From positions 1-41,297 of IMG/VR virus record IMGVR_UViG_2897346870_000001: DNA of 41,297 bases; one strand, 5' to 3'. The stretch is from a virus. Taxonomy: Duplodnaviria > Heunggongvirae > Uroviricota > Caudoviricetes. The notes beneath the pieces were generated by a model. It had not been told where the DNA came from. It did no database searches and saw only the letters and a list, made by a program, of their open reading frames with translations. Position numbers and translations under genes: made by a program. Below, piece by piece: positions 14,336-35,007 of the stretch (the stretch's first letter is position 1; each line of letters begins with the position of its first letter).

Positions 14336-14412
14336 TGGCGTGGCATGCAGGATTCGAACCTGCGACCAACCGCTTAGAAGGCGGTTGCTCTGTCCAACTT
14401 AGCTAATGCCAC
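14336..14412 (-). tRNA. tRNA-Arg (anticodon UCU)
   Basis: 77-nt minus-strand cloverleaf: 7-bp acceptor stem GTGGCAT/ATGCCAC, anticodon stem ACCGC/GCGGT with loop CTTCTAA (UCU), T-arm GCAGG-TTCGAAT-CCTGC, discriminator G plus encoded CCA; close to E. coli argU in the 3' half. Confidence 0.85.
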
Positions 14413-20546: not shown

Positions 20547-23011
20547 TGGCTATCAGTTGGATCCAGCCCAGCTTTGCCGGTGGTGAGATTGGACCGTCGT
20601 TGTACGGTCGTATCGACATGGCGAAGTACCAGGTGGCATTGCGCAAGTGCGATAACTTTATCGTGCGGCAGTATGGCGGCGTTGAGAATCGACCTGGTAC
20701 GCGTTTTGTCGGTGCCGCCAAATACCCAAATCGGAAATGCCGTCTGATCCCGTTCCAGTTCTCGACGGTTCAGACCTATGCTCTGGAGTTCGGACACCAG
20801 TACATGCGCGTTATCAAAGATGGTGCGTTGGTGCTGAACAGCAGCAATGTTATTTATGAAATTTCCACGCCATATACTGAAGCCGATCTGTTCCGAATTA
20901 AATTTACGCAAAGCGCCGACGTGCTTACGCTGGTTCACCCGGCATACCCGCCGAAAGAGGTGCGCCGCTATGCGCATGACAACTGGCAACTGGTTGATGT
21001 GGTAACGAAGAACGGGCCATTTGAAGATATCAATATTGACGAGTCAGTGACGGTTTATGCCAGCGCCAGCACCGGGACAATTACGTTAACGGCAAACGCC
21101 TCTATTTTTGGCGCGGAGCAGGTAGGCAAATTGTTCTATCTGGAACAGCCTGCAGTGGATTCAGTGCCGGTATGGGAAACCAGTAAGAGTACGTCGATTG
21201 GCGATATTCGCCGTGCAGACAGTAACTACTATCGCGCCGTTACAGCAGGCAAAACAGGCACTTTGCGCCCTTCGCATACAGAAGGCACATCATGGGATGG
21301 CTGGGGCGGATCCGGTGATGATGATACCGGCATTGAGTGGGAATATCTGCACAGTGGTTTTGGCATTGCCCGTATCACTGCTGCAAATGGAACTACTGCA
21401 ACTGCCGAGGTGATTTCCTATATCCCTTCGCAGGTCGTTGGCGAGGATAATGCCAGCTATAAATGGGCTAAATATGCCTGGAACAGTGTTAATGGTTATC
21501 CTGGCACTGTTGTTTATTATCAACAACGTCTTTACTTCGCCGCATCGACTGCGTTTCCTCAGACTATCTGGGCCAGCCGTACCGGGGATTATAAGGATTT
21601 TGGCAAAAGCAATCCTACGCAGGATGACGACAGAATTATCTACACCTATGCCGGACGTCAGGTTAATGAGATCCGCCACCTGATTGATGTTGGTTCTCTG
21701 GTGGCGCTGACTTCCGGAGGTGAGTACGTCATCACCGGCGACCAGAACAAAGTGTTAACCCCATCATCATTTGCATTCAGCTCTCAGGGATCAAATGGCT
21801 CAAGCAACGTCCCGCCAATTGCCGTGGCGAATATTGCTCTGTTCGTCCAGGAGAAAGGCAGCGTTGTCCGTGATCTGGCCTACTCATTCGATGTTGACGG
21901 CTATCAGGGGAACGACCTGACCATCCTTGCCAATCATCTTTTTCAGAAGCACAGCATTGTTGACTGGTGCTTCTCGATTGTCCCTTACTCCAGTGCCTTC
22001 TGCATTCGTGATGACGGTAAATTACTGGTGATGACCTATTTGCGTGATCAGCAGGTTTTTGCATGGGCACCACAATCCAGTACCGGAAAATATGAAAGCA
22101 CATGCAGTATCAGCGAAGGCAATGAAGATGCGGTGTATTTCGTCGTTAACCGAACCGTTAACGGGCAAACAGTGAGATACATCGAGCGACTGTCCAGCCG
22201 TTTATTTACCAGCGATGAAGATGCTTTCTTTGTTGATTCTGGCCTTAGCTATGATGGAAGAAATACGTCTGACAGAACGATGATCATCACTGGTGGTTCT
22301 GGCGAATGGGATTACCGCGCGGAATATACAATCAGTGTTTCTGGTGGTGCGTACTTCACCAGTAGTGATGTCGGCGCGCAACTACAGTTCCCTTATACCG
22401 GACCTGATACTGGCGATGAGGTGTCAAAAGAATTACGTTGCGACATTATTTCTGTAACCAGTAATACCGCTGTAGTGGTTCGTGCTAACAGGAACGTCCC
22501 GCCATCCCTCAGGAATGTGGCCACCACGAACTGGCAGATGGCGCGCCGGACATTTGGAGGCCTGTCTCATCTTGAAGGCCAGACCGTAAACATTCTCTCT
22601 GATGCGAACGTGGAACCACAGAAAGTGGTTTCCGGAGGTGCCGTCACGCTGGAATCTCCGGGGGCTGTAGTGCACATCGGCCTGCCAATAATTGCTGAAT
22701 TCGAAACACTGGATATCAACATTAACGGACAGGAAACGCTGCTGGACAAAAAACAGGTGATCCCGTCCGTTACTCTGGTTGTGAATGCCAGTCGCGGCAT
22801 CTGGGCGACTACGCCCGGCGGTAAATGGTACGAATATCCACAGCGTGAATTCGAGTTCTACGATGATCCTGTTGATGATGCTACCGGAAAAGTAGAAGTG
22901 AAACTGGACAGTAACTGGGGCAAAAACGGGCGTGTAAAAATCCGTCAGCTTGACCCGTTGCCGCTGTCTGTTCTTGCCGTTATTCCTCGCCTTACTGTTG
23001 GGGGATTCTGA
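20546..23011 (+). CDS. Tail tubular protein B-like (gp12-type nozzle)
   Basis: 821 aa immediately after the gp11-like gene; N-terminus IQPSFAGGEIGPSLYGRID. Confidence 0.5.
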   Translation: MAISWIQPSFAGGEIGPSLYGRIDMAKYQVALRKCDNFIVRQYGGVENRPGTRFVGAAKYPNRKCRLIPFQFSTVQTYALEFGHQYMRVIKDGALVLNSSNVIYEISTPYTEADLFRIKFTQSADVLTLVHPAYPPKEVRRYAHDNWQLVDVVTKNGPFEDINIDESVTVYASASTGTITLTANASIFGAEQVGKLFYLEQPAVDSVPVWETSKSTSIGDIRRADSNYYRAVTAGKTGTLRPSHTEGTSWDGWGGSGDDDTGIEWEYLHSGFGIARITAANGTTATAEVISYIPSQVVGEDNASYKWAKYAWNSVNGYPGTVVYYQQRLYFAASTAFPQTIWASRTGDYKDFGKSNPTQDDDRIIYTYAGRQVNEIRHLIDVGSLVALTSGGEYVITGDQNKVLTPSSFAFSSQGSNGSSNVPPIAVANIALFVQEKGSVVRDLAYSFDVDGYQGNDLTILANHLFQKHSIVDWCFSIVPYSSAFCIRDDGKLLVMTYLRDQQVFAWAPQSSTGKYESTCSISEGNEDAVYFVVNRTVNGQTVRYIERLSSRLFTSDEDAFFVDSGLSYDGRNTSDRTMIITGGSGEWDYRAEYTISVSGGAYFTSSDVGAQLQFPYTGPDTGDEVSKELRCDIISVTSNTAVVVRANRNVPPSLRNVATTNWQMARRTFGGLSHLEGQTVNILSDANVEPQKVVSGGAVTLESPGAVVHIGLPIIAEFETLDININGQETLLDKKQVIPSVTLVVNASRGIWATTPGGKWYEYPQREFEFYDDPVDDATGKVEVKLDSNWGKNGRVKIRQLDPLPLSVLAVIPRLTVGGF

Positions 23012-23475
23012 TGATCGATGTTCAAATTATTCCCGCCACCGAAGAGCATCTTCAGATGATTTTGCCGGATGTTCGTCAGGCTGATATTGACGAACTGTAT
23101 GCGGTATCGCTGATGACTACCGAAGATGCGCTGCGTGTTGGTCTTCGCACTGCGACTATGGCCTGGTCAGGGTTCGCGAACGGAGAACTGGTAACCATGT
23201 TTGGCGTATCTCCGGCGTCAATGATCGGTGGCAATGGTACGCCCTGGCTGGTCGGAACCAGCCGTATCGAAAAATATCAGAAGACATTTCTTCGCCACTG
23301 CCGCCCTGTATTGCAGCAGATGCTGGCAGTTTATCCGCGCCTGGAAAACTATGTCGACGAGCGAAACCATGTTGCCAAAGCATGGCTGCACTGGCTTGGA
23401 TTCAGGCTTGAAGAAGCCGCGCCTTATGGTGCTCTTGGTCTTAATTTCCACAGATTTCACATGGAGAGAAAATAA
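23011..23475 (+). CDS. Putative virion/internal core protein
   Basis: 154 aa between the tail tube and ejection protein genes. Confidence 0.4.
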   Translation: MIDVQIIPATEEHLQMILPDVRQADIDELYAVSLMTTEDALRVGLRTATMAWSGFANGELVTMFGVSPASMIGGNGTPWLVGTSRIEKYQKTFLRHCRPVLQQMLAVYPRLENYVDERNHVAKAWLHWLGFRLEEAAPYGALGLNFHRFHMERK

Positions 23476-24020
23476 TGTGCGATCCGGTTATTGCTGGTGG
23501 CGCAATGCTCGCCATGAGTGGCATTCAGGCATACACCCAGTACCAACAGGGAAGGTATGCCTCGAAGGTTGCAGAAGCGAACGCAGATATAGCCACAGCT
23601 CAGGCAAATGATGCAATAAACAGGGGTAACGCTGAAGCTGAGCAACGGCGCAGAGAGACCCGACAGCGGCTTGGTACACAGGTGGCGACAATGGGGGCGA
23701 CCGGCGCCGATTTATCTACCGGTAACGCGCTGGATATATTTGGCGACACTGCCCAGTTTGGCACTCTTGATTCGCTGACGACGGTGAATAACGCGCAACG
23801 CGAGGCTTACGGTTATCAGGTTCAGGCTGCCAACTATAAAGCAGAAGCCAGTTCAGCACGTAAACAGGGGAATGTAGGAGCAGCAACAACATTGCTCACT
23901 GCGCCTCTGAAGGCATACGGTGCGTACCAGATGTTTGGTGGGACGTGGAGTCCGTTTACTCAAAGCACTCCTGCGCCAATCGGGGCAGCAGCAGGAACCA
24001 GATTACCCGGAGGATTATAA
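23475..24020 (+). CDS. Internal virion protein (gp14-like)
   Basis: 181 aa, N-terminal hydrophobic segment then Ala/Gln-rich helical region. Confidence 0.45.
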   Translation: MCDPVIAGGAMLAMSGIQAYTQYQQGRYASKVAEANADIATAQANDAINRGNAEAEQRRRETRQRLGTQVATMGATGADLSTGNALDIFGDTAQFGTLDSLTTVNNAQREAYGYQVQAANYKAEASSARKQGNVGAATTLLTAPLKAYGAYQMFGGTWSPFTQSTPAPIGAAAGTRLPGGL

Positions 24021-26641
24021 TGCCAGTCGTACCAACAGTATCCGGACGTCAGGTTGAGAGTCGTGGAGTTCAGTCAGCAGGCTTGCAGACGTTTTCTCAG
24101 CCAGGTATTGGTGATGCTTTTGTTCGGGCAGGGACAGAGGCAATTGATGTTTTGGGGCAGGCAAAACAGCGTGCCAATATCGCTCTGGCTCAGGAGGCAT
24201 CTCTTAACCTCAGTCAGATAAGCAGCGATCTGCTGAATAATCCTGAAACAGGTTTGCTTAACCTGAAAGGGAAAAATGCTATTGGAAAAGGTCAGGAGTA
24301 TACGCAGCAGTTTGATGCTCAGATCGAACAACTGGCTATGTCGCTGCCGGATGAACAGGCTCGTAATGCTTTCATGCAGCAGGCACAGCAGCAGCGCATT
24401 CAGTTCACTACGCAGGCCGGGAGGTACGAAATAGGACAGGTTCGCCAGTATGAGGCGGATATGCAGGATGCGACACTAAAAAACCTATCGATGCAGTTCC
24501 GTAACCCGACAATGGCAAACCAGGCAGGATTGAAGGCATATCATAGCATCATCGCTTACGGCGAAGCCCACGGCCAGAGTCAGGAAGAGATCGAACAGAA
24601 CTGGGTTTCGTGGCGCGAGAATGCCGCGAACGGTGCGGCGGAGGCGTGGTATGTGCCGATGTATCAACAGATGATGGGTCCGAACGGCAAGATTGAGGTA
24701 ACCGATACACCGAGTGAGGCGCAGTTATTCTCTGCAATAATCTGGCAGGAGAGTGGCGGAAATCAGTACGGAAAGGACGGAACACCTCTGGTGTCGCCAA
24801 AAGGCGCTGTTGGCGTAGCGCAGGTGACGGAAGATACTGGCCCCGAAGCTGCCCGCCTTGCTGGCGTGTCGTGGGACCGAGATAAATGGTTGAATGACCC
24901 GCGCTATAATGCCCGCTTGGGGCAAGCTTATTTCGGCGCGCAGATGAAGAAATACGACAATAACCCGGTTCTGGCAGTAGCTGCCTATAACGCTGGCCCA
25001 GGAAAGGTTGACGGCTGGATTAAACAGATTGGCGATCCGCGCACAGGCGAAGTCAGTGACGCCCAGTTTGCCGCAGCTATCCCATACGACGAGACGCGCA
25101 ATTATGTGGCAAAAGTAACTGGCAGTGCTGGAGCTATTCCTGGATCTGCGACGATGGAAAACCTCATCGCACAGCCATTCTGGAACGCCATGAGTCCGGA
25201 CAAAAAGTCGCAGATGATGAGCAAGGTTGCTGGCATGTACGACATGCAGGCTTCAGCCGGTCGCGTTGCGCTACAGAGTCGAATGCAGGATGACCTATCC
25301 AAAATTGAGGCCGGTAAGCAGGTGACGCCTATTTCAGCGCACGAATGGGCCGCCGTTATGCCGCTTCAGGCAGCGCCTGCCGAGCGCCTGCAGATGGAAA
25401 AAACCTTCCAGCAATACCAGCAGGCAATGACGCTACAACCTGTTTATCAGACCATTATGCAGGGCAACGTCCAGCAGGGTACCGCCGCCGTGCAGGCAAT
25501 GGCACCGCAGGAAAACGACCCTGACTTTAAATACAAAGCAGAGCTTTATGCATCGGCAAAGGTCAAGCTTGGGCAGGTACTGAAGGCGCGGGAAGCGGAT
25601 CCGGGGGCATGGCTGCAACAAAACTCTCCGGTTGTGCAAGCTGCATTCCAGCAGTACCTCAATGACCCTTCATCTGGTGAATACCTGGTTTCCCGCATAC
25701 AGTCTGAAAAAGACCGCCTGGGGATAATGAGCAAAAAAGTTTTACCGGAGTCCATGGTCAACGACGTACTGCAGCGTATTGACAACACGCAGGAATCTAG
25801 CGTAAAGGCCATTCAGTCGGTGGCGCAGTCGTTCGGCAAATACTCGGATCAGGTGATGCAGCAGGTTCAGAAGAACGCTTATCCTGCGTTGCAGGTTGTC
25901 ATGGCTACCGAGAACCCGCGCGCGGCAAATGCGCTCTGGCAAAACCGTAGCGTTAAAACTGCTGACTTACGCGGCAGTCTTGAGAAAACCGACGCGGATA
26001 GCGCCGACTCGTCATGGAATGACCAATCGAAAGATTTTGCAGGCACGATGGTTGTTCAGCCTGGTGGCACTGCCGTGTGGAATAACTTCAACGAGCAGGG
26101 AAAACGACTTACTTACATCAACATGCAGCGCGGAATGTCGGCGTCTGATGCAGCAAAACAGGCGTATCAGGACATCCTCGGCGAGCAGTACCAGACCAAT
26201 GGCACTTGGCGGCTACCTAAGCGTGCAGGGATAGATATTCGTGACGTTAACGATGGTGCCAATGCGTATCTGAAAAACCTGTCAGCAGATCAGATTATGC
26301 CGCTTATTGGTGACCCAAGGCTACCTGATGAGGTTAACCGTGAGCAGAGTATCTCCCGCATTCGTGATAATGCGCAGTGGGTTACCAGCAGCGACGAAAC
26401 AGGACTTACCCTGATGCTCAACGGGCTGATCGTCAACGGTGCCGATGGCAACCCGATTACGGTGACGTTCAACGATCTGGCGAAACTGGGAACAACCAAC
26501 CGATCAGTATGGAACCGCATTACCAAGTTCATTGATACTCCGGTGAAATATACTCCCGGACAGTCTAAGGAATACAGCGCAGAAAGTCAGCGCGACAACC
26601 TGATTAACATTTTCCAGAACGGCCAGCAATCAGGACGATAA
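24020..26641 (+). CDS. Internal virion protein with lytic transglycosylase (SLT) domain
   Basis: SLT signatures IWQESGGNQ ... AYNAGPGKV. Start placed at the ATG overlapping the previous stop (GGAGGA Shine-Dalgarno) rather than the track start 23945. Confidence 0.7.
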   Translation: MPVVPTVSGRQVESRGVQSAGLQTFSQPGIGDAFVRAGTEAIDVLGQAKQRANIALAQEASLNLSQISSDLLNNPETGLLNLKGKNAIGKGQEYTQQFDAQIEQLAMSLPDEQARNAFMQQAQQQRIQFTTQAGRYEIGQVRQYEADMQDATLKNLSMQFRNPTMANQAGLKAYHSIIAYGEAHGQSQEEIEQNWVSWRENAANGAAEAWYVPMYQQMMGPNGKIEVTDTPSEAQLFSAIIWQESGGNQYGKDGTPLVSPKGAVGVAQVTEDTGPEAARLAGVSWDRDKWLNDPRYNARLGQAYFGAQMKKYDNNPVLAVAAYNAGPGKVDGWIKQIGDPRTGEVSDAQFAAAIPYDETRNYVAKVTGSAGAIPGSATMENLIAQPFWNAMSPDKKSQMMSKVAGMYDMQASAGRVALQSRMQDDLSKIEAGKQVTPISAHEWAAVMPLQAAPAERLQMEKTFQQYQQAMTLQPVYQTIMQGNVQQGTAAVQAMAPQENDPDFKYKAELYASAKVKLGQVLKAREADPGAWLQQNSPVVQAAFQQYLNDPSSGEYLVSRIQSEKDRLGIMSKKVLPESMVNDVLQRIDNTQESSVKAIQSVAQSFGKYSDQVMQQVQKNAYPALQVVMATENPRAANALWQNRSVKTADLRGSLEKTDADSADSSWNDQSKDFAGTMVVQPGGTAVWNNFNEQGKRLTYINMQRGMSASDAAKQAYQDILGEQYQTNGTWRLPKRAGIDIRDVNDGANAYLKNLSADQIMPLIGDPRLPDEVNREQSISRIRDNAQWVTSSDETGLTLMLNGLIVNGADGNPITVTFNDLAKLGTTNRSVWNRITKFIDTPVKYTPGQSKEYSAESQRDNLINIFQNGQQSGR

Positions 26642-26642
26642 C

Positions 26643-28340
26643 ATGCCAATTTACACAGATGATCCGGGACAGGGCATTAACCAGCCAATTGGCAACGCGC
26701 CAGCAGGGCTTGGCGAATCGCTGCTTTCTTCCCTTAAGCAGGGATTTGAAGAGGGGCCGGTCATGTCCGGCTACCGCTTTGCGCAGGTCGACTCGCTGGC
26801 GAATGACCCAAACTCTACAGTTATCAGTAAGCAGGACGCAGATGAGCTCCTGAAGCAGTACGGCGTAAAGAGCATAAACGTGCCAGATTCTGGCGTTACG
26901 CAGGCTTTTCTCGATCATGTTATTGCCGAACGCAAAGATTCTCTGGCACGCCAGCAGATTGCGATGTCGGCACCGAGCGGGTGGGTAGCCACGCCGCTTA
27001 ATTTCGCAGCCAGCCTAGCTGGTTCAATGGCAGATCCTGGTAACGTGGCGCTGGCGCTGGTTCCGTTCGCTGGAGAAGCAAAGGCAGCTTCTGTGCTTGG
27101 CCGATTTGGCGAGCGATTTGTTGCGGGTGCACGCATGGGGGCAGCGCAGGCGGTGGTGACCGTGCCGCTTACCGGGCTGGCAGCGGCGGCGGAAGGTGAC
27201 GACTTCACCTATAGCAACGCGTTGGAAAGTACTTTCTTTAACACGATGGCTGGCGGTCTAATGCATGCCGGCGGCGGCCTTATCGCCGATATCGTGCGAC
27301 CGCGTCGCGTTCCCGATGCTGCAACGGGAGAGTCCCCGGCGTTTTCTGGCGATGCGCAGCCAACCCCGGTGATAACGCCTGACAACATTCCGGCGGGCGT
27401 GAATATCCCTGAGGTTGGCGCTAACGCAGATCTGGCGGCGGCCATTTCCAATGAAGCGGAGAGCTACGCATACAGCCGGGCTTATGACGACGTGGTTCCT
27501 GACTATATGGCGCGCCAGCAGGAGTTACAGAGCGGACAGATCGGTAACGTTGCCGACCTGCGTGCCGAGCTTGCGGCTAATCAACGTCATGCTGACTCGC
27601 TTGATGCGACGCTGCAGCAGCGCACCAAAAAGTATCAGGGGCAGCGGATGAAGTTTAAGGATGCGCGCTCTAGGGCACTGAAAGAGATTCAGGCCGAGAA
27701 AGACGCCATCGCTGCACGCAATCAGGAGATCAACACATCGCTGGAGCAGAACGCGACAGCAGAGCAGGCGCGCTGGCGCCAGTCTCAGATTTCCCGCGGC
27801 GAGATCCCCGACGACCTGAAAGTCACCATTTCCGAGCGTGCGCAGCAGATCCTGGACGGCATGCAGATGTCGCCGGTCGCTGGCGCAGTTCGCACTGCCG
27901 CAAGCGCCATCAGGGATGCTGACTGGAGCGTGAACCAGCAGGCGTATCGCGCTGCGCTGGCACACATGATGGAAGGACGTAGCCCAGATGTTGAGCCCTT
28001 CTATGAACTGCACAAATCGGCACTGCGCGAACGCGCCATCCATCGCATACAGAACCCGGCACGGCAGGTTGATGAAACGGCTCGCCCAGCAAGCGAAACA
28101 GCCGATCGGGTTTATCAAGAAACGCAAAAGGCAGATCATGAAATTACCGCTGCCGCTGCAGACCTTGATAACGAGCTCAACCTGAGTAACGCCCTGCTTG
28201 ACGATATCGCTGTCGATAACCCTGATCTTGCGACCACGTTGCGCCAGAAACTCAATGATATTCGTGCCGACGCCAGCGACAATAGCATGAGCAACGCTTT
28301 CCGGGCATTTGCCGCCTGTATGATTAACCGGGGGATGTGA
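26643..28340 (+). CDS. Internal virion (ejection) protein
   Basis: 565 aa, Ala-rich, within the run of large late genes. Confidence 0.5.
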   Translation: MPIYTDDPGQGINQPIGNAPAGLGESLLSSLKQGFEEGPVMSGYRFAQVDSLANDPNSTVISKQDADELLKQYGVKSINVPDSGVTQAFLDHVIAERKDSLARQQIAMSAPSGWVATPLNFAASLAGSMADPGNVALALVPFAGEAKAASVLGRFGERFVAGARMGAAQAVVTVPLTGLAAAAEGDDFTYSNALESTFFNTMAGGLMHAGGGLIADIVRPRRVPDAATGESPAFSGDAQPTPVITPDNIPAGVNIPEVGANADLAAAISNEAESYAYSRAYDDVVPDYMARQQELQSGQIGNVADLRAELAANQRHADSLDATLQQRTKKYQGQRMKFKDARSRALKEIQAEKDAIAARNQEINTSLEQNATAEQARWRQSQISRGEIPDDLKVTISERAQQILDGMQMSPVAGAVRTAASAIRDADWSVNQQAYRAALAHMMEGRSPDVEPFYELHKSALRERAIHRIQNPARQVDETARPASETADRVYQETQKADHEITAAAADLDNELNLSNALLDDIAVDNPDLATTLRQKLNDIRADASDNSMSNAFRAFAACMINRGM

Positions 28341-30889
28341 TGGCAGCAAACGAATTTTTGACGCAGTGCGAGCGCAGTGTAAATGCTGCCGCTGGTCGCG
28401 AGCTTTCTTCCGATGAGATGGAGTCGCTGGTGCGTGACATGAACGACACCACTAGGCGAATTCTGGCGACCAATGAGGCGCTGTCTCTGGAAGAGGCCGC
28501 GATGCGCGCAGCGGAAGAACTGAGCAATGCCGATATGCTGGCAAAACAGATTGAGTCTCGCAATAAGGCAATCAACACCCGTATTGCCGCACAACGACTT
28601 AGAGAGCTTCGTACTATCTGGAAAGACCGCCCGGATATCGGGCTTGAAGCAATGCTGGTTGGCCGTAACGATGCGCGTACCGGCGCCCGCCGGTCGGTAT
28701 CTTCGGAGGTGGCGCAACTGCGCGGCAAGTATCATTCCGGTATCAACTACGATTTTGACCGTGCCGGGCTGGTGCAATTCATCGCCAGCGGCAGCAATGA
28801 CAGGGAAATTGCCGATGCAATGTGGCGCATAGGGCGCGGGCAGTCAACTGACGGTATGACAAAGCAATCCGTAAGCGCTGCACAAATCATCATGAAATGG
28901 CAGGAAACTGCGCGCATTGATGAGAACCGTGCCGGGGCATGGATACGCAAAGAGCCGGGCTATATAGTGCGCCAGTCACACGACATCATGAAGATCCGCG
29001 CCGCAGGTTATGAAGCATGGCGAAATGCTATTCTCCCGCGCCTTGATGAGCGCACTTTTGACGGCGTGGCTGACCGCGAGCAGTTCATGCGTAACATTTA
29101 TAACGGGCTGGCTTCCGGCGTGCATCTTACATCTGAAAAGCCCGATTGGATGAATGGCTTTAAGGGATCGGCGAACGCAGCTAAACGCGCCAGCCAAGAG
29201 CGAATTTTGCACTTCAAAGATGGTATCTCGTGGCACGAGTACAACCAGCAATTCGGCACCGGCAGCCTGCGAGAGGCGCTGTTTGGTGGCTTAAACAGCG
29301 CTGCCCGCACAACGGGCATGATGCGCGTATTGGGCACTAACCCACAGAACATGTTTAAGTACCTGACGGACACCATTGCTGAAGATATCAGCAAATCCGG
29401 AAGACCGGCAGCGTTGGCTGACTACATGACGAAGGTGCGTCGCATTAACCGTACCGTAATGCCGCAGGTTGACGGCTCGCTAAATATTCCTGGCAGCGTA
29501 GGCTGGGCCAATGCGTCGGCGGCTGTACGCGGCTGGTTGCGTATGAGCCAGCTTGGTGGCGCGGTAATCTCATCGTTTAACGACGTGCCTATCGCCGCTA
29601 CCGAGATGCGCTACCAAGGGCAGAATTTTATGCAGGCGTTGCTTGGTGCTATGAGAGGCCGCTTCACGCGTTACAACAGCGCGGAGCAGAAAGAGATCCT
29701 TTCCTCTATCGGAGTTTATTCCGACTCCATGACGCAGGAAATCATCCGGCGCATATCTGGTGATGACACGCTGAATGGAAAACTTGGTCGCGCGCAGCAG
29801 CTTTTCTTTAAGTACAACCTCATGAACTTCTGGACCGAGAGCGGTCGCAACAGTAACGCCATGATGATAACCAACTGGCTTGCAAAGAATGCTGACCAGC
29901 CTCATGCGCGGCTACCGGAAGACCTGCGACGCGTGCTGGATCTGCACGGTATTGGCGAACGTGAGTGGGAAATTTTTCGCAACATGGACATGGCCGATAG
30001 CGAAGGTCGTAAGTTCATGACGACCAGCGGCATCCGCGGCGTGCCTGACGAAGTGATTGCCGGTTATGTAGAGAGTAAGGGGATCAAGCCAACGCAGCGC
30101 GCTATCGCTGACGCACGCGATCAATTGGAAGGGCAGTTGCGCGGCTACATCCTTGACCGCCTGAATATCGCCATGTCAGAGCCTGGCGATCGCACGCAGG
30201 CGTTTATGAAGATGGGCACGGTGCCAGGAACGGTGGCTGGGGAAGCAATACGATTCGCTGGTCAGTACAAATCGTTCACTGCAAGCTTCATGCAGAACGT
30301 ACTAGGACGCGAAGTATTCGGGCGTGGTTATATTCCTGCTGGGCTTGGTGAGTCGAAAACCGGATCGCTGACGAATGCGCTGCTGCGTAACGGGAAGGGG
30401 GCTTTCCTTGGTGCTGCAAACCTCTTTGTCTGGGCGACTATGTTTGGTTATATCTCCATGCAGTCAAAACTCATGCTGAAAGGGCAAACACCGCGCCCGG
30501 CAGATGCCAAGACGTTTCTCGCAGCCGCATCTCAGGGGGGCGGTCTTGGCATCTTGGGTGACTTCATGTTTGGCGAGGTCAACCGCATGGGGGCCGGGCC
30601 GGTTACGTCGCTAATGGGGCCGGCAGCATCGAACGCTGACAGCATTATCACGCTGCTCCAGCAGACCACGAGAGGGGATGCAGATTTGGGTGACTGGTAT
30701 CGCACGGCACTTGACAATACGCCATTCCTCAACGTGTTCTGGCTTCGTACGGCGATGAATGGTTTAATATTGAACCGGATACAAGATGCCCTTGACCCTG
30801 GCTCTCTTGAGCGTTATCAGCGCCGTGTTGAGCGTGAGCAGGGTAACGAATTTCTGATTCCACCATCGCAGTTCATGCTAGGGAAGTAA
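28337..30889 (+). CDS. Large internal virion (ejection) protein
   Basis: 850 aa, last of three large core proteins before the tail fibre region. Confidence 0.5.
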   Translation: MMAANEFLTQCERSVNAAAGRELSSDEMESLVRDMNDTTRRILATNEALSLEEAAMRAAEELSNADMLAKQIESRNKAINTRIAAQRLRELRTIWKDRPDIGLEAMLVGRNDARTGARRSVSSEVAQLRGKYHSGINYDFDRAGLVQFIASGSNDREIADAMWRIGRGQSTDGMTKQSVSAAQIIMKWQETARIDENRAGAWIRKEPGYIVRQSHDIMKIRAAGYEAWRNAILPRLDERTFDGVADREQFMRNIYNGLASGVHLTSEKPDWMNGFKGSANAAKRASQERILHFKDGISWHEYNQQFGTGSLREALFGGLNSAARTTGMMRVLGTNPQNMFKYLTDTIAEDISKSGRPAALADYMTKVRRINRTVMPQVDGSLNIPGSVGWANASAAVRGWLRMSQLGGAVISSFNDVPIAATEMRYQGQNFMQALLGAMRGRFTRYNSAEQKEILSSIGVYSDSMTQEIIRRISGDDTLNGKLGRAQQLFFKYNLMNFWTESGRNSNAMMITNWLAKNADQPHARLPEDLRRVLDLHGIGEREWEIFRNMDMADSEGRKFMTTSGIRGVPDEVIAGYVESKGIKPTQRAIADARDQLEGQLRGYILDRLNIAMSEPGDRTQAFMKMGTVPGTVAGEAIRFAGQYKSFTASFMQNVLGREVFGRGYIPAGLGESKTGSLTNALLRNGKGAFLGAANLFVWATMFGYISMQSKLMLKGQTPRPADAKTFLAAASQGGGLGILGDFMFGEVNRMGAGPVTSLMGPAASNADSIITLLQQTTRGDADLGDWYRTALDNTPFLNVFWLRTAMNGLILNRIQDALDPGSLERYQRRVEREQGNEFLIPPSQFMLGK

Positions 30890-30890
30890 T

Positions 30891-31262
30891 ATGAACAGAA
30901 TTATATTAATGATTATTCTTATGCTTTTAGTTGTAAAATCTTTTGCAGATACTACCTCACCGTTAATGATTCAGCCTAAAAATGGGGAAACACTGGAGGA
31001 TTCTAAAAAGCATACAATGGAATATTTTGGATGTATAAAAGGGCAGGCCGTAAAATACGCTAAGACAGGAGAAAGTGTTGATTCTATATCCAAAGCTTCG
31101 GTTGTGTCATGCGAGTCGTACATACAAAAGATTGCTGAATCAAATATATACTATTTAAATTCCTCTCAAGACGGTAAGCGGAAATTTATTGGAAGGCTTA
31201 AATCAGATGGTGAAAGTTTAGCAACGAAATTTGCTATGGATGAAAAGCTAAAAAATAAATAG
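30891..31262 (+). CDS. AT-rich moron: secreted protein with signal peptide
   Basis: 123 aa; N-terminal MNRIILMIILMLLVVKSFA signal peptide, two Cys; GC content visibly much lower than neighbouring genes; start 1 nt after the preceding stop. Confidence 0.55.
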   Translation: MNRIILMIILMLLVVKSFADTTSPLMIQPKNGETLEDSKKHTMEYFGCIKGQAVKYAKTGESVDSISKASVVSCESYIQKIAESNIYYLNSSQDGKRKFIGRLKSDGESLATKFAMDEKLKNK

Positions 31263-31372
31263 GTGACTACATGCAAGCGATAGGATTCATTGGGCTGATG
31301 GTTTGCAGCTAACCTGCAAGTTTGCGAAGTGCCAAACAAATAATCTCACGGCGCTGTTCATCCCCAGGAAGC

Positions 31373-31395
31373 TGCATTGTGATTTTCACAATGCA
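31373..31395 (+). terminator. Perfect 10-bp hairpin TGCATTGTGA-TTT-TCACAATGCA
   Basis: Downstream of the moron gene; followed by GGTTTTAAA; possible end of the late transcript. Confidence 0.35.
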
Positions 31396-31412
31396 GGTTT
31401 TAAACCACTGCT

Positions 31413-31619
31413 TCATTTTCGTAAAGCCATACAAATCATGGCTTGCACCCCACCGGCAGAAGGTATGGTGATTTCCACCATACCCTTCGAGAAGCGTTGA
31501 GAAATCTTCTTATGTTGAGATTTCCAGTCTAGACCCATTCCCTCAACGATAGGTTTCATTGGGGTGTACGGTTCGCCGTTGTGATTGACAACATAAAGTT
31601 CTGCGCCGTGGAATGGCAC
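31413..31619 (-). pseudogene. Possible truncated antirepressor/Rha-like N-terminal fragment
   Basis: 68-aa GTG-initiated ORF (VVNHNGEPYTPMKPIVEGMGLDWKSQHKKI) resembling N-terminal DNA-binding domains of Rha/Ant proteins, with no Shine-Dalgarno and no C-terminal domain. Confidence 0.2.
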
Positions 31620-31766
31620 GTTGATAGTAGTGACAAATTTGAAACATCGCTGGTTGTAAGCCAGCAGATGCTCGTTATTTTACGTCGCGGCACAATTTCT
31701 CGCTGCTGGCTCTTTTACACGCATTAACCAAATATGGTTGATTTTAATATCCACCTGTGCCTATTA

Positions 31767-31846
31767 TTACCTTTGCGGTAAATTTACATCGCACTCCTCT
31801 TGTGCCATAGTAATCGGGCACTGGCAAAATCCAGTGCCGGGATTGG
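31767..31846. repeat. Inverted repeat IR-A, left copy (antirepressor promoter/leader)
   Basis: About 80 bp, near-identical in reverse complement to 34928..35007; includes operator TTACCTTTGCGGTAA (31767..31781) and the palindromic hairpin GCACTGG-CAAAAT-CCAGTGC. Confidence 0.8.
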
Positions 31847-32048
31847 TCTCCCGGATTACTACAGAGGCACATATGCCGCATAAGCGGTTTTTTTATGTGT
31901 AAAGCGCACCTATTCTATGGTGGGCTGTGTGGGGGCACCGAAAGGTGCGCCGGGTTCCTTTGTAGCCGGTAAGACCAACTCTGCACAGTTCACCACCATC
32001 TGATTGGTCTCAGCGGTGGTGATTAACCTAACTACAAAGGTGATCGCC

Positions 32049-32741
32049 ATGAATACCAAACCTTCCATCTTTTCCTTTGAGTCATCCTGCCAGATCCGTA
32101 TGTTCATGATTGACGGAGAACCTTGGTTTGTCACCAAAGATGTGTGCAATGCTTTGAATATTGATGTTACACAAGCGAGAAAACTTGATAAAAAAGGCTG
32201 GAACAAAAAGGGGCTGTATTCAATACAGACCCCTGGTGGAATACAAGAACTATCCATCGTTTCAGAATCAGGTCTCTACATCCTTATTCTGCGTTGCAAA
32301 GAGGCAATGACTGAGGGAACGAGAGCATTCAGATTTCTTGAATGGGTTACAGGTGAGGTTCTTCCTCAGATCCGCCGCACCGGAAGCTACATTAAAAACT
32401 CGCTCCCGCAGGAAGAGCGCATAAAGATGGTTGCCGACCAGGTAGCCAACGCCACGGCGTCAGCAGTAATGCAGGCGATGAAGATAGAGAACAAAACCTA
32501 CAGTGCCCCACTGAAGCCCGGCTACCGCAGCCTGATTCATTCGCCGTCTGGTGTTCTCGGCCTGACGGAGAACTCACTGCTGATGAATCTGCTGAACCAG
32601 TTACAGGAAGACGGGCATGACGTATCGGGCGCGGCGGCGGAGTTGACCACCATGTTCTGCTACATCGTCGGTGTGAACAAATGCCTGCGTGATATCCAGA
32701 CGCACGCGGAGTACATCAACGACAAAGCAGGGTTCTTCTGA
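32049..32741 (+). CDS. Antirepressor, BRO-N N-terminal domain plus shared C-terminal domain (copy 1)
   Basis: N-terminus MNTKPSIFSFESSCQIRMFMIDGEPWFVTKDVCNALNI is a BRO-N-type fold; C-terminal 125 aa nearly identical to the gene at 34013..34723; AGGTGA Shine-Dalgarno. Confidence 0.7.
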   Translation: MNTKPSIFSFESSCQIRMFMIDGEPWFVTKDVCNALNIDVTQARKLDKKGWNKKGLYSIQTPGGIQELSIVSESGLYILILRCKEAMTEGTRAFRFLEWVTGEVLPQIRRTGSYIKNSLPQEERIKMVADQVANATASAVMQAMKIENKTYSAPLKPGYRSLIHSPSGVLGLTENSLLMNLLNQLQEDGHDVSGAAAELTTMFCYIVGVNKCLRDIQTHAEYINDKAGFF

Positions 32742-32743
32742 CG
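32341..32743. repeat. Inverted repeat IR-B, left copy (3' half of antirepressor 1)
   Basis: About 400 bp, near-identical in reverse complement to 34011..34413; produces mirrored 61-aa artefact ORFs in the track (32392..32577 and 34177..34362). Confidence 0.85.
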
Positions 32744-32778
32744 AGCGGCGGCACAGGGATGTGCAAAACGAAACTATC

Positions 32779-32815
32779 GTGACATGTCACAGGCCGCTTT
32801 CGCGGCCTTGTTTTT
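32779..32815 (+). terminator. GTGACATGTCAC copy 3 fused to a strong rho-independent terminator
   Basis: Palindrome 32779..32790 directly followed by AGGCCGC-TTTC-GCGGCCT plus TGTTTTT (32791..32815). Confidence 0.7.
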
Positions 32816-33056: not shown

Positions 33057-33569
33057 CTATGCAGGCTTTTTGGATTTGTACGAATAATCCCACGGATAAA
33101 CATTTCTACTAAGTGGAGCTGTATTCGTTCGTTCATGAAATAATTTTGTGAAATTCAATACGGAATCCATCCAAACTTTTGCGTTAGCTTTGGTGTGTGC
33201 GGGCGGGTCCCAATAAGCTAGTAAGGCTGCATCTCTTATTTCATTGACTGCATATATGAGATATGCGTTACTGGTTGGTTTTGGCCTGTAATTTCCTTGT
33301 TCATCAATCAATCCATATGACCACTCATCCCAACACTGTTCAGTACATGAGTATGAATATGATGCATATTCACCAATATTGACATGAACCTTTCTGAGAT
33401 GGAAGCCTAATACTTCCTCTGGTCTTTCAAAAAGAGTATCTTTTCCCAGATCAGGATGATGACCATGACGCCAGTGTTGTTTAAAAGCATCTTTTAGCGA
33501 AATCAGAAAGTCATCAGTTTTAAACTCACCAGTAGGTATAACCTTCCCGCTATACTCACTCAAAAACAT
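33057..33569 (-). CDS. YafO-like toxin candidate (type II toxin-antitoxin family)
   Basis: By-eye alignment to E. coli YafO recalled from memory: HPDLGKDTLFE vs LPDIFGRDALYD, LRKVHVNI vs ERVAHIHL, AYLIYAVNEIRDAALLAYWDPPAH vs AHLVYCQGAFDEQAWLLIAILKPEPH. AT-rich; overlaps the upstream gene by 14 nt. Confidence 0.5.
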   Translation of the reverse strand: MFLSEYSGKVIPTGEFKTDDFLISLKDAFKQHWRHGHHPDLGKDTLFERPEEVLGFHLRKVHVNIGEYASYSYSCTEQCWDEWSYGLIDEQGNYRPKPTSNAYLIYAVNEIRDAALLAYWDPPAHTKANAKVWMDSVLNFTKLFHERTNTAPLSRNVYPWDYSYKSKKPA

Positions 33570-33882
33570 CGAATTCCTCTTCCTTCATATGCGTTTCTAA
33601 TGAGTTAAGCTGGCGGAAAGATATCTCTTTTGATTCTGCAGATGAGAGCTTTTTTATCCGCTTTATATTCTTTGTGATAGGAATAGACATTGTATGCACA
33701 TCAGCGGATGCTCTTGGCTTTGTGCTGATAAAAATATGGCGCAATGCCGCATTTTCACTATTGAACGAGCCAATAGCTGATTTACGTGCTACAACCTTAC
33801 CAGTAAAAATACGACTCTTGCTACGCTTTGCATGAGTTCCGCTTCTTACCGGACCTCTCATCACGAATCCAAGTTTTGTCAT
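33556..33882 (-). CDS. Putative antitoxin/partner of the YafO-like gene (unknown family)
   Basis: 108 aa, basic with acidic C-terminus (MKEEEFDVFE); first gene of a two-gene overlapping operon; GGAG Shine-Dalgarno. Confidence 0.35.
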   Translation of the reverse strand: MTKLGFVMRGPVRSGTHAKRSKSRIFTGKVVARKSAIGSFNSENAALRHIFISTKPRASADVHTMSIPITKNIKRIKKLSSAESKEISFRQLNSLETHMKEEEFDVFE

Positions 33883-34723: not shown

Positions 34724-34927
34724 GGTGGTTATCTCCACTTAGTGATTTTAATCACCACCGCAACGCCAATTACTGGTGGTGAACTGGACAAGGTTGGCGT
34801 ACCGGCCTAAGTGGTACCGGCGTCCTTTCGGACCCCTGCCCAGCCCACCATAATTCGGATATAGCTGTGCTTAACGCATAAAAAAACCACGTCTGGCGTG
34901 GTATGCGCCACTTAGTAACTCGGGACG

Positions 34928-35007
34928 CCAATCCCGGCACTGGATTTTGCCAGTACCCGATTACTATGGCACAAGAGGAGTGCGATGTAAATTTACCTCA
35001 AAGGTAA
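34928..35007. repeat. Inverted repeat IR-A, right copy (antirepressor 2 promoter/leader)
   Basis: Reverse complement of 31767..31846; contains operator at 34993..35007 (TTACCTCAAAGGTAA). Confidence 0.8.

Follow-up and report, generated by a model that had tools for sequence, protein, structure and literature searches.

An exported 123-residue protein encoded directly after the ejection genes of enterobacterial prophages: a candidate periplasmic superinfection exclusion factor

What is the role of a small, AT-rich gene that closes the block of ejection genes in a prophage, and which step of the phage or host life cycle could its product serve? The question is raised by a Caudoviricetes sequence of 41,297 nucleotides (IMG/VR record IMGVR_UViG_2897346870_000001; the whole stretch analysed is called the window hereafter), in which an ORF for 123 amino acids follows the last gene for an internal virion protein. 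To our knowledge, the conduit by which short-tailed phages pass their DNA across the periplasm remains poorly understood and few natural inhibitors of it are known. If the product of the 123-aa ORF is indeed soluble and periplasmic, its tight linkage to the ejection genes would make it a candidate probe of this conduit step.

An exported protein at the end of the ejection block

The 123-aa gene is the last of the ejection block in temperate short-tailed enterobacterial prophages, and is preceded in the window by the genes of a T7 gp14-like protein and of three large ejection proteins (Table 1). Phage homologues of the third of these, the 850-aa protein, are annotated as internal virion protein. 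Its best matches among 50,697 sequenced phage genomes (45-49%) belong to Stenotrophomonas and Pseudomonas podophages, and none of these genomes holds a close relative, yet the protein is common in enterobacterial prophages; this prophage lineage thus appears to be without an isolated representative. The window is about 99% identical from 24700 to 32026 to a prophage of Escherichia coli N21, an isolate from cerebrospinal fluid, with 100% identity over 721 bp around the 123-aa ORF. Past 32026, the two match only as rearranged pieces. Comparison with the locus L020 places a mosaic boundary inside the ejection module (window 23011-24020 versus 23945-30889), a 154-aa protein and the gp14-like protein being 98-99% identical between the two and the three large ejection proteins 27-37%. 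Elsewhere in the window, the late block, which is on the plus strand, contains a minus-strand tRNA-Arg gene (anticodon TCT, 14336-14412) between its terminase and portal genes.

Table 1. Positions of the 123-aa gene, its parts and its neighbours in the window
Feature	Position	Strand	Basis or remark
T7 gp14-like internal virion protein, 181 aa	23475..24020	+	Pfam PF24072 T7_gp14, 29.2 bits (cut-off 27)
Large ejection protein, SLT lytic transglycosylase domain, 898 aa	23945..26641	+	Pfam SLT 63.7 bits; NCBIfam transglycosylase
Middle ejection protein, 565 aa	26643..28340	+	phrog_3003; phrog_342 'internal virion protein with endolysin domain'
Last ejection (internal virion) protein, 850 aa	28337..30889	+	phrog_684 'virion structural protein', E = 9e-271
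SD-like AGGGAAG, TAA of the upstream gene and 1-nt spacer	30880..30890	+	Direct sequence reading
Gene of the exported 123-aa protein	30891..31262	+	ORF of 123 codons; the position includes the stop
Predicted Sec signal peptide, residues 1-19 (MNRIILMIILMLLVVKSFA), predicted cleavage between SFA and D	30891..30947	+	Heuristic n/h/c-region analysis
Mature domain, 104 aa, 11.6 kDa, pI 8.8	30948..31259	+	Flexible N-terminal tail, then helical bundle
Cys48 codon	31032..31034	+	Family-invariant; probable first half of a disulfide
Cys74 codon	31110..31112	+	Family-invariant; probable second half of a disulfide
Remnant of a gene for a 98-aa multi-TM protein, first 7 codons (MQAIGFI)	31271..31312	+	Homology breaks at 31292
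Intrinsic terminator (AGGCCGCTTTCGCGGCCT + T-run)	32791..32808	+	In relatives, just after the slot gene

The sequence-only reading had described the gene as strikingly poorer in GC than its surroundings and as starting 1 nt after the stop of the last internal virion gene, and both descriptions are borne out. The TAA of the 850-aa gene occupies 30887-30889 and is followed by a single T and by the ATG at 30891, while the SD-like AGGGAAG (30880-30886) lies within the 3' end of the 850-aa gene. As far as the sequence can tell, this geometry is typical of translational coupling, and the distance from stop to start is 1-2 nt at every locus of the 123-aa type. The GC content of the ORF is 0.333 (GC3 0.29), against 0.53-0.58 for the three preceding ejection genes, and is the minimum among the 52 non-overlapping ORFs of the window (mean 0.494, sd 0.044, z = -3.6). 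A windowed GC plot, which the earlier reading had proposed as a check, gives the same picture: stretches of 372 nt that are equally AT-rich amount to 0.02% of all, and the minimum of the entire 41 kb begins at 30887. The deviation recurs at every locus, the family genes having a GC content of 0.30-0.41 versus 0.48-0.56 upstream. Within the ORF but on its antisense strand (31081-31110, minus strand) is the region's best match to a promoter (ATGACA-18-TAGAAT, 10/12), probably a by-product of this AT-richness.

The product has the appearance of a protein destined for the periplasm. Its N-terminus reads MNRIILMIILMLLVVKSFA and continues beyond the predicted cleavage site with DTTSP. It combines a charged n-region (MNR, +1), a hydrophobic core of 12 residues (IILMIILMLLVV) and a c-region ending in KSFA before the D, the residues at -3 and -1 being small. 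The maximum KD19 value in the mature part is 0.36, and this part holds no second TM-like segment. By our heuristic, the tripartite signal, the AxA-type site and the lack of any further TM segment are those of a Sec-exported soluble periplasmic protein. The same heuristic recovers the tripartite form in all 29 family members examined despite their differing signal sequences, which lends support to the signal peptide that had been noticed in the single sequence. In the family alignment, this segment drifts in sequence and keeps its hydrophobicity. One member is a lipobox (LSAC) variant, tethered through a long linker.

AlphaFold2 predicts a confident helical bundle for the mature domain (model meb36cc4b640b; pLDDT 91.6, pTM 0.81), so that the structure prediction proposed earlier has a clear outcome. 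The model starts with a flexible tail of about 15 residues, and its helices span residues 16-40, 44-54, 57-65 and 74-102. Apart from Met1, the sole invariant columns of the deep alignment (A2) are C48 and C74; K55, Y56, E61, K113 and D117 are nearly invariant across the family. The model places C48 on helix 1 and C74 where helix 2 ends, and because these positions would face each other in an antiparallel hairpin, a periplasmic disulfide between them is likely.

The absence of a family annotation and the odd base composition could suggest that the ORF is a chance reading frame in AT-rich spacer DNA. This is hardly credible. The dN/dS ratio of the mature domain is 0.05-0.09 between genera, at dS values of 0.8-1.5 at which synonymous change is near saturation, the frame is kept across genera at 25-98% identity together with the two invariant cysteines, and the structure prediction is confident. 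These data on selection and conservation effectively refute a chance ORF: the 123-aa ORF is a genuine gene, and the purifying selection acting on it is strong. Compared with the mature part, the signal peptide changes more quickly (dN/dS 0.2-1.9).

Homologues with 61-98% identity are present in Escherichia, Klebsiella, Salmonella, Enterobacter, Phytobacter and Sodalis. From 1.84 billion representatives, a profile search contributed no more than about 15 further genuine relatives, 25-45% identical, which comprise forms of 102-117 aa and the lipoprotein with its LSAC lipobox. The family thus includes proteins of 123, 102, 110, 117 and 145 aa besides the lipoprotein, with identity down to about 25%. 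Two strong-looking matches of the deep profile, P0023 (2352 aa, 40 repeats) and P0034, were discarded as repeat-protein artefacts. The statement that the protein belongs to no recognisable family has held up: Pfam (E <= 0.1), NCBIfam and PADLOC gave no match, the sole PHROG match had an E-value of 0.093, and a tblastn search of the 50,697 phage genomes found nothing. The fold search that had been proposed alongside returned no specific structural match, either among solved structures (PDB) or among predicted viral ones (BFVD). In the literature, the RefSeq accessions of the protein and of its slot neighbours appear in no paper.

The slot after the last ejection gene

Genomic contexts were read for every family lineage within reach, in three sets: public assemblies, one representative genome per species, and 21 IMG/VR viral contigs. 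The family gene lies directly 3' of the last ejection gene in 49 of 50 loci, in prophages of Escherichia, Klebsiella, Salmonella, Enterobacter, Citrobacter and Phytobacter, at a distance of 1-33 nt; in the few cases where the distance seems larger, the gene upstream is frameshifted. The lone exception is a 61%-identical copy from Sodalis that adjoins a Rep3 replicase gene on a short contig. This adjacency holds beside at least four ejection-protein architectures (824-855, 974, 1005 and 1129 aa) and is independent of the element downstream, which may be an antirepressor gene, an Arc/Mnt-type repressor, a lysis cassette or a tailspike gene. Each of the roughly 15 relatives from the profile search whose context could be read sits in the same place. 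In L012 and L013, a gap of 147 nt seems to separate the family gene from a 1005-aa last ejection gene. A short ORF in between (L012:7853-8001, L013:6170-6318) matches the ejection-protein profile, so the 1005-aa gene would be frameshifted near its end and the gap is probably not real.

The gene is nevertheless dispensable. The matching end of the ejection gene is present in 144 of 5,426 complete E. coli genomes, and only 6 of these 144 have the 123-aa gene, which is 99-100% identical across the six; in 56 others of the 144 the slot holds an unrelated secreted protein of 186 aa (phrog_11983). Since 49 of the 50 loci place the family gene after the last ejection gene, it is an old, dispensable companion of the ejection module and not a recent add-on. 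Similarity within the family is only loosely tied to that among the ejection proteins: the L012 member has a 79%-identical core beside ejection proteins of 28-30% identity, and the L021 member a 31%-identical core beside a 53%-identical last ejection protein. The module has therefore been reshuffled by recombination. Strict co-divergence with one particular ejection protein was considered as a clue to a binding partner and rejected. The Spearman coefficients are 0.35-0.65 with clear exceptions, and they are uninformative because the pairs are non-independent and the signal is confounded by linkage.

In the strict definition, a moron is an extra gene that brings a promoter and a terminator of its own, deviates in composition and is patchily distributed. 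The 123-aa gene resembles the lambdoid morons in the sense of Juhala and Hendrix as an extra gene of deviant composition and patchy presence at a module boundary, and differs from them in that no promoter of its own was detected and in its long residence in one slot, where it has diverged to about 25% identity. The moron label given by the sequence-only reading therefore survives for the deviant GC and the patchy presence (6 of 144). The gene is not a recent addition, and no private promoter was detected above background in 14 lineages.

Evidence on expression comes from both sides of the gene. In the search for a dedicated promoter, a consensus scan and a position weight matrix (PWM) scan both stayed at background level: no consensus sigma-70 promoter was found on the plus strand of 30300-30890, in a scan that a weak or atypical promoter could escape, and the best PWM scores over 160 nt upstream in 14 lineages fell within the background of the ejection genes. 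On the other side, a strong hairpin with a T-run stands 14 nt 3' of the family gene in L018 and L010, and a matching hairpin follows the gene of the 186-aa protein in L003. From its sequence and place, this hairpin reads as the operon terminator. In the window, it has been moved by about 1.5 kb by inserted DNA (the remnant of the 98-aa protein gene, an antirepressor pseudogene and an isrK-C4-BRO-N module). As no promoter of its own was detected and the operon terminator stands behind it in relatives, the 123-aa gene can be read as the final cistron of the late operon that encodes the ejection proteins, and its co-expression with this operon is plausible.

A protein made at this time could act in the periplasm of the virion-producing cell itself, either in lysis timing, as an antiholin-like protein or a lysis-inhibition sensor, or in protection from the envelope damage that secondary adsorptions would cause before assembly is complete. 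The geometry of the locus fits late-operon expression well, with the 1-nt gap, the undetected promoter and the terminator seen in relatives. T4 offers precedents for such a late role in RI and Spackle, two small proteins of the periplasm with a part in lysis inhibition (for Spackle, PMC7677548). Against it, the family is not tied to any type of lysis cassette: the window and most loci combine holin_8, holin_3_7 and GH19, L055 has holin_2_1 with a lysozyme, and L024 has a different endolysin. Furthermore, the gene is dispensable in most relatives, and the signal peptide has a normal predicted cleavage site and is not an anchor of the SAR type. We thus regard a late role in the producer as decidedly unlikely.

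A variable cargo slot separates the ejection genes from the antirepressor/tailspike region. In Enterobacterales, its occupants are the 123-aa family, a protein matching Rap1a, the 186-aa secreted protein, a 159-aa lipoprotein and several membrane peptides of 48-67 aa (for the last three kinds, L003:4193-4753; L039:6490-6969; L027:6556-6759; L043:6476-6649; L045:6450-6617; L048:6471-6617; L050:4937-5113), all of them AT-rich (GC 0.20-0.44 versus 0.5-0.6 upstream). Of the 11 cargo types found directly 3' of the ejection gene in this order, 8 carry a signal peptide, a lipobox or a TM segment. The binomial probability of such a proportion of envelope-targeted products is about 2e-4, given a background rate of 20% that we assumed. 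The slot 3' of the last ejection gene has the look of a hotspot for cargo. Relatives in Pseudomonas and alphaproteobacteria have a tail fibre or spike gene directly after the ejection gene.

One cargo type deserves separate mention. Rap1a is an immunity family against type VI peptidoglycan amidases. Sibling prophages of Klebsiella and Leclercia carry in the slot a secreted protein of 118-127 aa (L025:6547-6930, L028:6547-6930, L026:6556-6912), which matches the Pfam family Rap1a (PF18602; 48.8 bits versus a cut-off of 27.7) and also phrog_3870. Judging by this match, the gene is possibly an orphan immunity gene borne by a prophage.

Could the 123-aa protein likewise be an orphan periplasmic immunity protein that protects the lysogen against a competitor's toxin, such as a type VI peptidoglycan hydrolase or a bacteriocin? 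The presence of a bona fide Rap1a-family protein in the slot of the Klebsiella and Leclercia siblings speaks for it, and so does a general build shared with Rap1a and Tai4, which are small periplasmic helical bundles dependent on one disulfide (PMC3852654). Like Rap1a and Tai4a, the 123-aa protein combines a signal peptide with a bundle of helices some 100 aa long, in which a disulfide is suggested by the model and the invariant cysteines, and the occurrence of a signal peptide or a lipobox among family members is as in such immunity proteins. Direct comparison gives no sign of kinship: a distant membership in Rap1a or Tai4 was rejected, as there is no Pfam match and hhalign against the Rap1a-like slot proteins gives a probability of 0.09%. 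Context speaks against this role too. No effector adjoins the family gene at any of the 50 loci (49 in the prophage slot, one beside the Rep3 replicase gene), no member lies in a secretion-system cluster, and the effector-linked relatives that one would expect among 1.84 billion representatives were not found. The undetected lysogen promoter is a further argument against immunity, which on balance seems unlikely.

Possible action in the periplasm

P22 already provides an example of dispensable cargo that is targeted to the envelope and encoded at the boundary behind the ejection genes. What is new here is the protein family, its soluble periplasmic nature, the phage lineage that hosts it and the strict conservation of its position. 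In P22, sieA sits between genes 16 and 9 and blocks DNA injection, and mutations that escape it map to the ejection proteins gp16 and gp20 (PMC10883804). The 123-aa gene has the same location, directly after the last ejection gene and before an antirepressor (immI-type) region and the tailspike gene, that is, in the interval from the last ejection gene to the tailspike of a temperate short-tailed phage. By analogy, the target presumed for its product would also be the incoming conduit of ejection proteins. Judged by this location, the role in exclusion or host interaction that the sequence-only reading had suggested is a reasonable proposal. The two proteins are nonetheless dissimilar. SieA is a multi-pass inner-membrane protein with a conserved motif, FxRYPxEAxxFNK (PMC10883804). 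This motif is cytoplasmic and the gene has its own promoter, PsieA, whereas the 123-aa protein is predicted to be soluble after signal cleavage and its promoter was undetected; the motif is absent from its sequence, in which the signal peptide is the only hydrophobic segment. The ejection sets differ as well, being T7 gp14-like and SLT-bearing here and composed of gp7, gp20 and gp16 in P22.

In its build, the protein is closer to T4 Spackle (gp61.3), a periplasmic helical bundle of 75 aa with one disulfide that binds the tail lysozyme and excludes superinfection (PMC7677548). Both are small, exported and compactly alpha-helical with two cysteines, the disulfide of the 123-aa protein being predicted from its invariant cysteines. 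Spackle targets the part of the superinfecting phage that degrades the cell wall, and the phage of the window has an SLT domain in an ejection protein. A Spackle-like fold is not supported: neither sequence nor structure of the 123-aa protein gave a match. Spackle is also an early gene of a virulent myovirus, in contrast to the 123-aa gene of a temperate short-tailed prophage.

Among the readings considered, we lean, tentatively and with somewhat less than even confidence, towards the 123-aa protein being a binding protein of the periplasm that keeps superinfecting relatives out at the step of envelope crossing. Once exported, it would act stoichiometrically and intercept the apparatus with which a related phage crosses the envelope, either the ejected internal proteins or the machinery for penetrating the cell wall. 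The incoming DNA would thereby be kept from the cytoplasm, so that superinfection exclusion would take place in the periplasm. The prophage would have to express the gene at a low level, through an undetected promoter or by read-through, and strong expression would follow induction.

The argument for exclusion starts from where the two partners could meet. As virion assembly is cytoplasmic, a soluble protein with a cleaved signal never meets the ejection proteins of the cell that produces the virions; the meeting can therefore occur only in a cell that already has the protein in its periplasm and receives the ejected proteins of another virion. Exclusion is suggested by this logic taken together with the slot equivalent to that of sieA, the prevalence of envelope-targeted products there and the nearly exclusive association with one module. 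More generally, the purifying selection, the confident model, the export signals, the adjacency to the ejection genes, the slot theme and the precedents all count in its favour.

Several observations count against it. Exclusion would need expression in the lysogen, and no sigma-70 promoter rises above background in the 160 nt upstream across the 14 lineages. The similarity of family members follows the ejection proteins only loosely, as L012 and L021 illustrate. The adjacency itself could merely mean that the end of an operon is a safe place for cargo to insert. In four lineages that carry the family, no SLT domain could be detected in the large ejection proteins, which weakens the version in which the protein, like Spackle, would inhibit a hydrolase. 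Mimicry of a segment of an ejection protein was also considered and rejected. The Foldseek matches in BFVD were weak and fell on phage proteins of about 900 aa (E 0.35-3.3), and profile-profile comparison with the alignments of the 898-, 565- and 850-aa proteins gave probabilities of at most 1.1%.

It is tempting to extend periplasmic exclusion into a more specific proposal, which we consider speculative and rather doubtful. The family would then be a new class of soluble periplasmic exclusion proteins that bind the internal proteins ejected by ejectosomes of the T7 gp14/15/16 type and poison the assembly of the trans-envelope conduit, and the slot after the ejection genes would be a general hotspot in which temperate short-tailed phages keep envelope-level defence cargo, captured type VI immunity genes included. 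If this is true, prophages of clinical E. coli, Klebsiella and Salmonella possess a new exclusion mechanism that bears on host range in phage therapy, and the hotspot could be mined for new entry-blocking proteins.

Alternatively, the gene could serve the host, by altering the envelope of the lysogen or its interaction with an animal, for instance through resistance to lysozyme, peptides or serum. AT-rich prophage cargo often has roles in host fitness or virulence, as with bor and lom of lambda. The closest genome is that of the cerebrospinal-fluid E. coli, while humans, chickens and wastewater are the sources of further carriers. The family occurs as well in Phytobacter and in the insect symbiont Sodalis, which fits poorly with such a role, its fold is unlike that of known lysozyme inhibitors, and the strict link to one phage module would be left unexplained. 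We consider a host-fitness function very improbable. Were the gene ordinary accessory cargo without a phenotype, little would be lost, given its rarity (present in 6 of the 5,426 complete genomes of E. coli). The rule that the slot carries rotating envelope-targeted cargo, a Rap1a-type homologue among it, is a simple genomic guide to more such proteins, and this rule and the Rap1a-type neighbour may prove more reusable findings than the gene itself.

Rearranged DNA downstream of the gene

The DNA that follows the 123-aa gene in the window bears several marks of rearrangement. The first is the remnant of the gene for the 98-aa multi-TM protein, and L002 is alignable with the window only up to 31292. 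The intact gene (phrog_3075) is found in L002, L009, L015-17 and L043. An obligate two-gene module formed by this membrane protein and the 123-aa family was considered and rejected: the 98-aa gene accompanies only some family loci and occurs in L043, where the family is absent. A second rearrangement scar, like the remnant at 31271-31312, is a truncated pseudogene of a P22_AR_N antirepressor (31413-31619, minus strand).

Beyond these lies a module composed of an isrK sRNA, a C4 antisense RNA and a BRO-N antirepressor gene, which is present in two inverted copies (31762-32764, plus strand; 35007-33989, minus strand). The Rfam matches of the two copies are at 31818-31894 and 31913-32000 (plus strand) and at 34880-34956 and 34772-34855 (minus strand). 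The first copy sits between the 123-aa gene and the displaced operon terminator. A second AT-rich block extends over 33057-33882 on the minus strand (GC about 0.39) and contains overlapping ORFs of 170 and 108 aa. The 170-aa ORF has a weak, sub-threshold match to the YafO toxin (E = 7e-4) and may represent toxin-antitoxin cargo.
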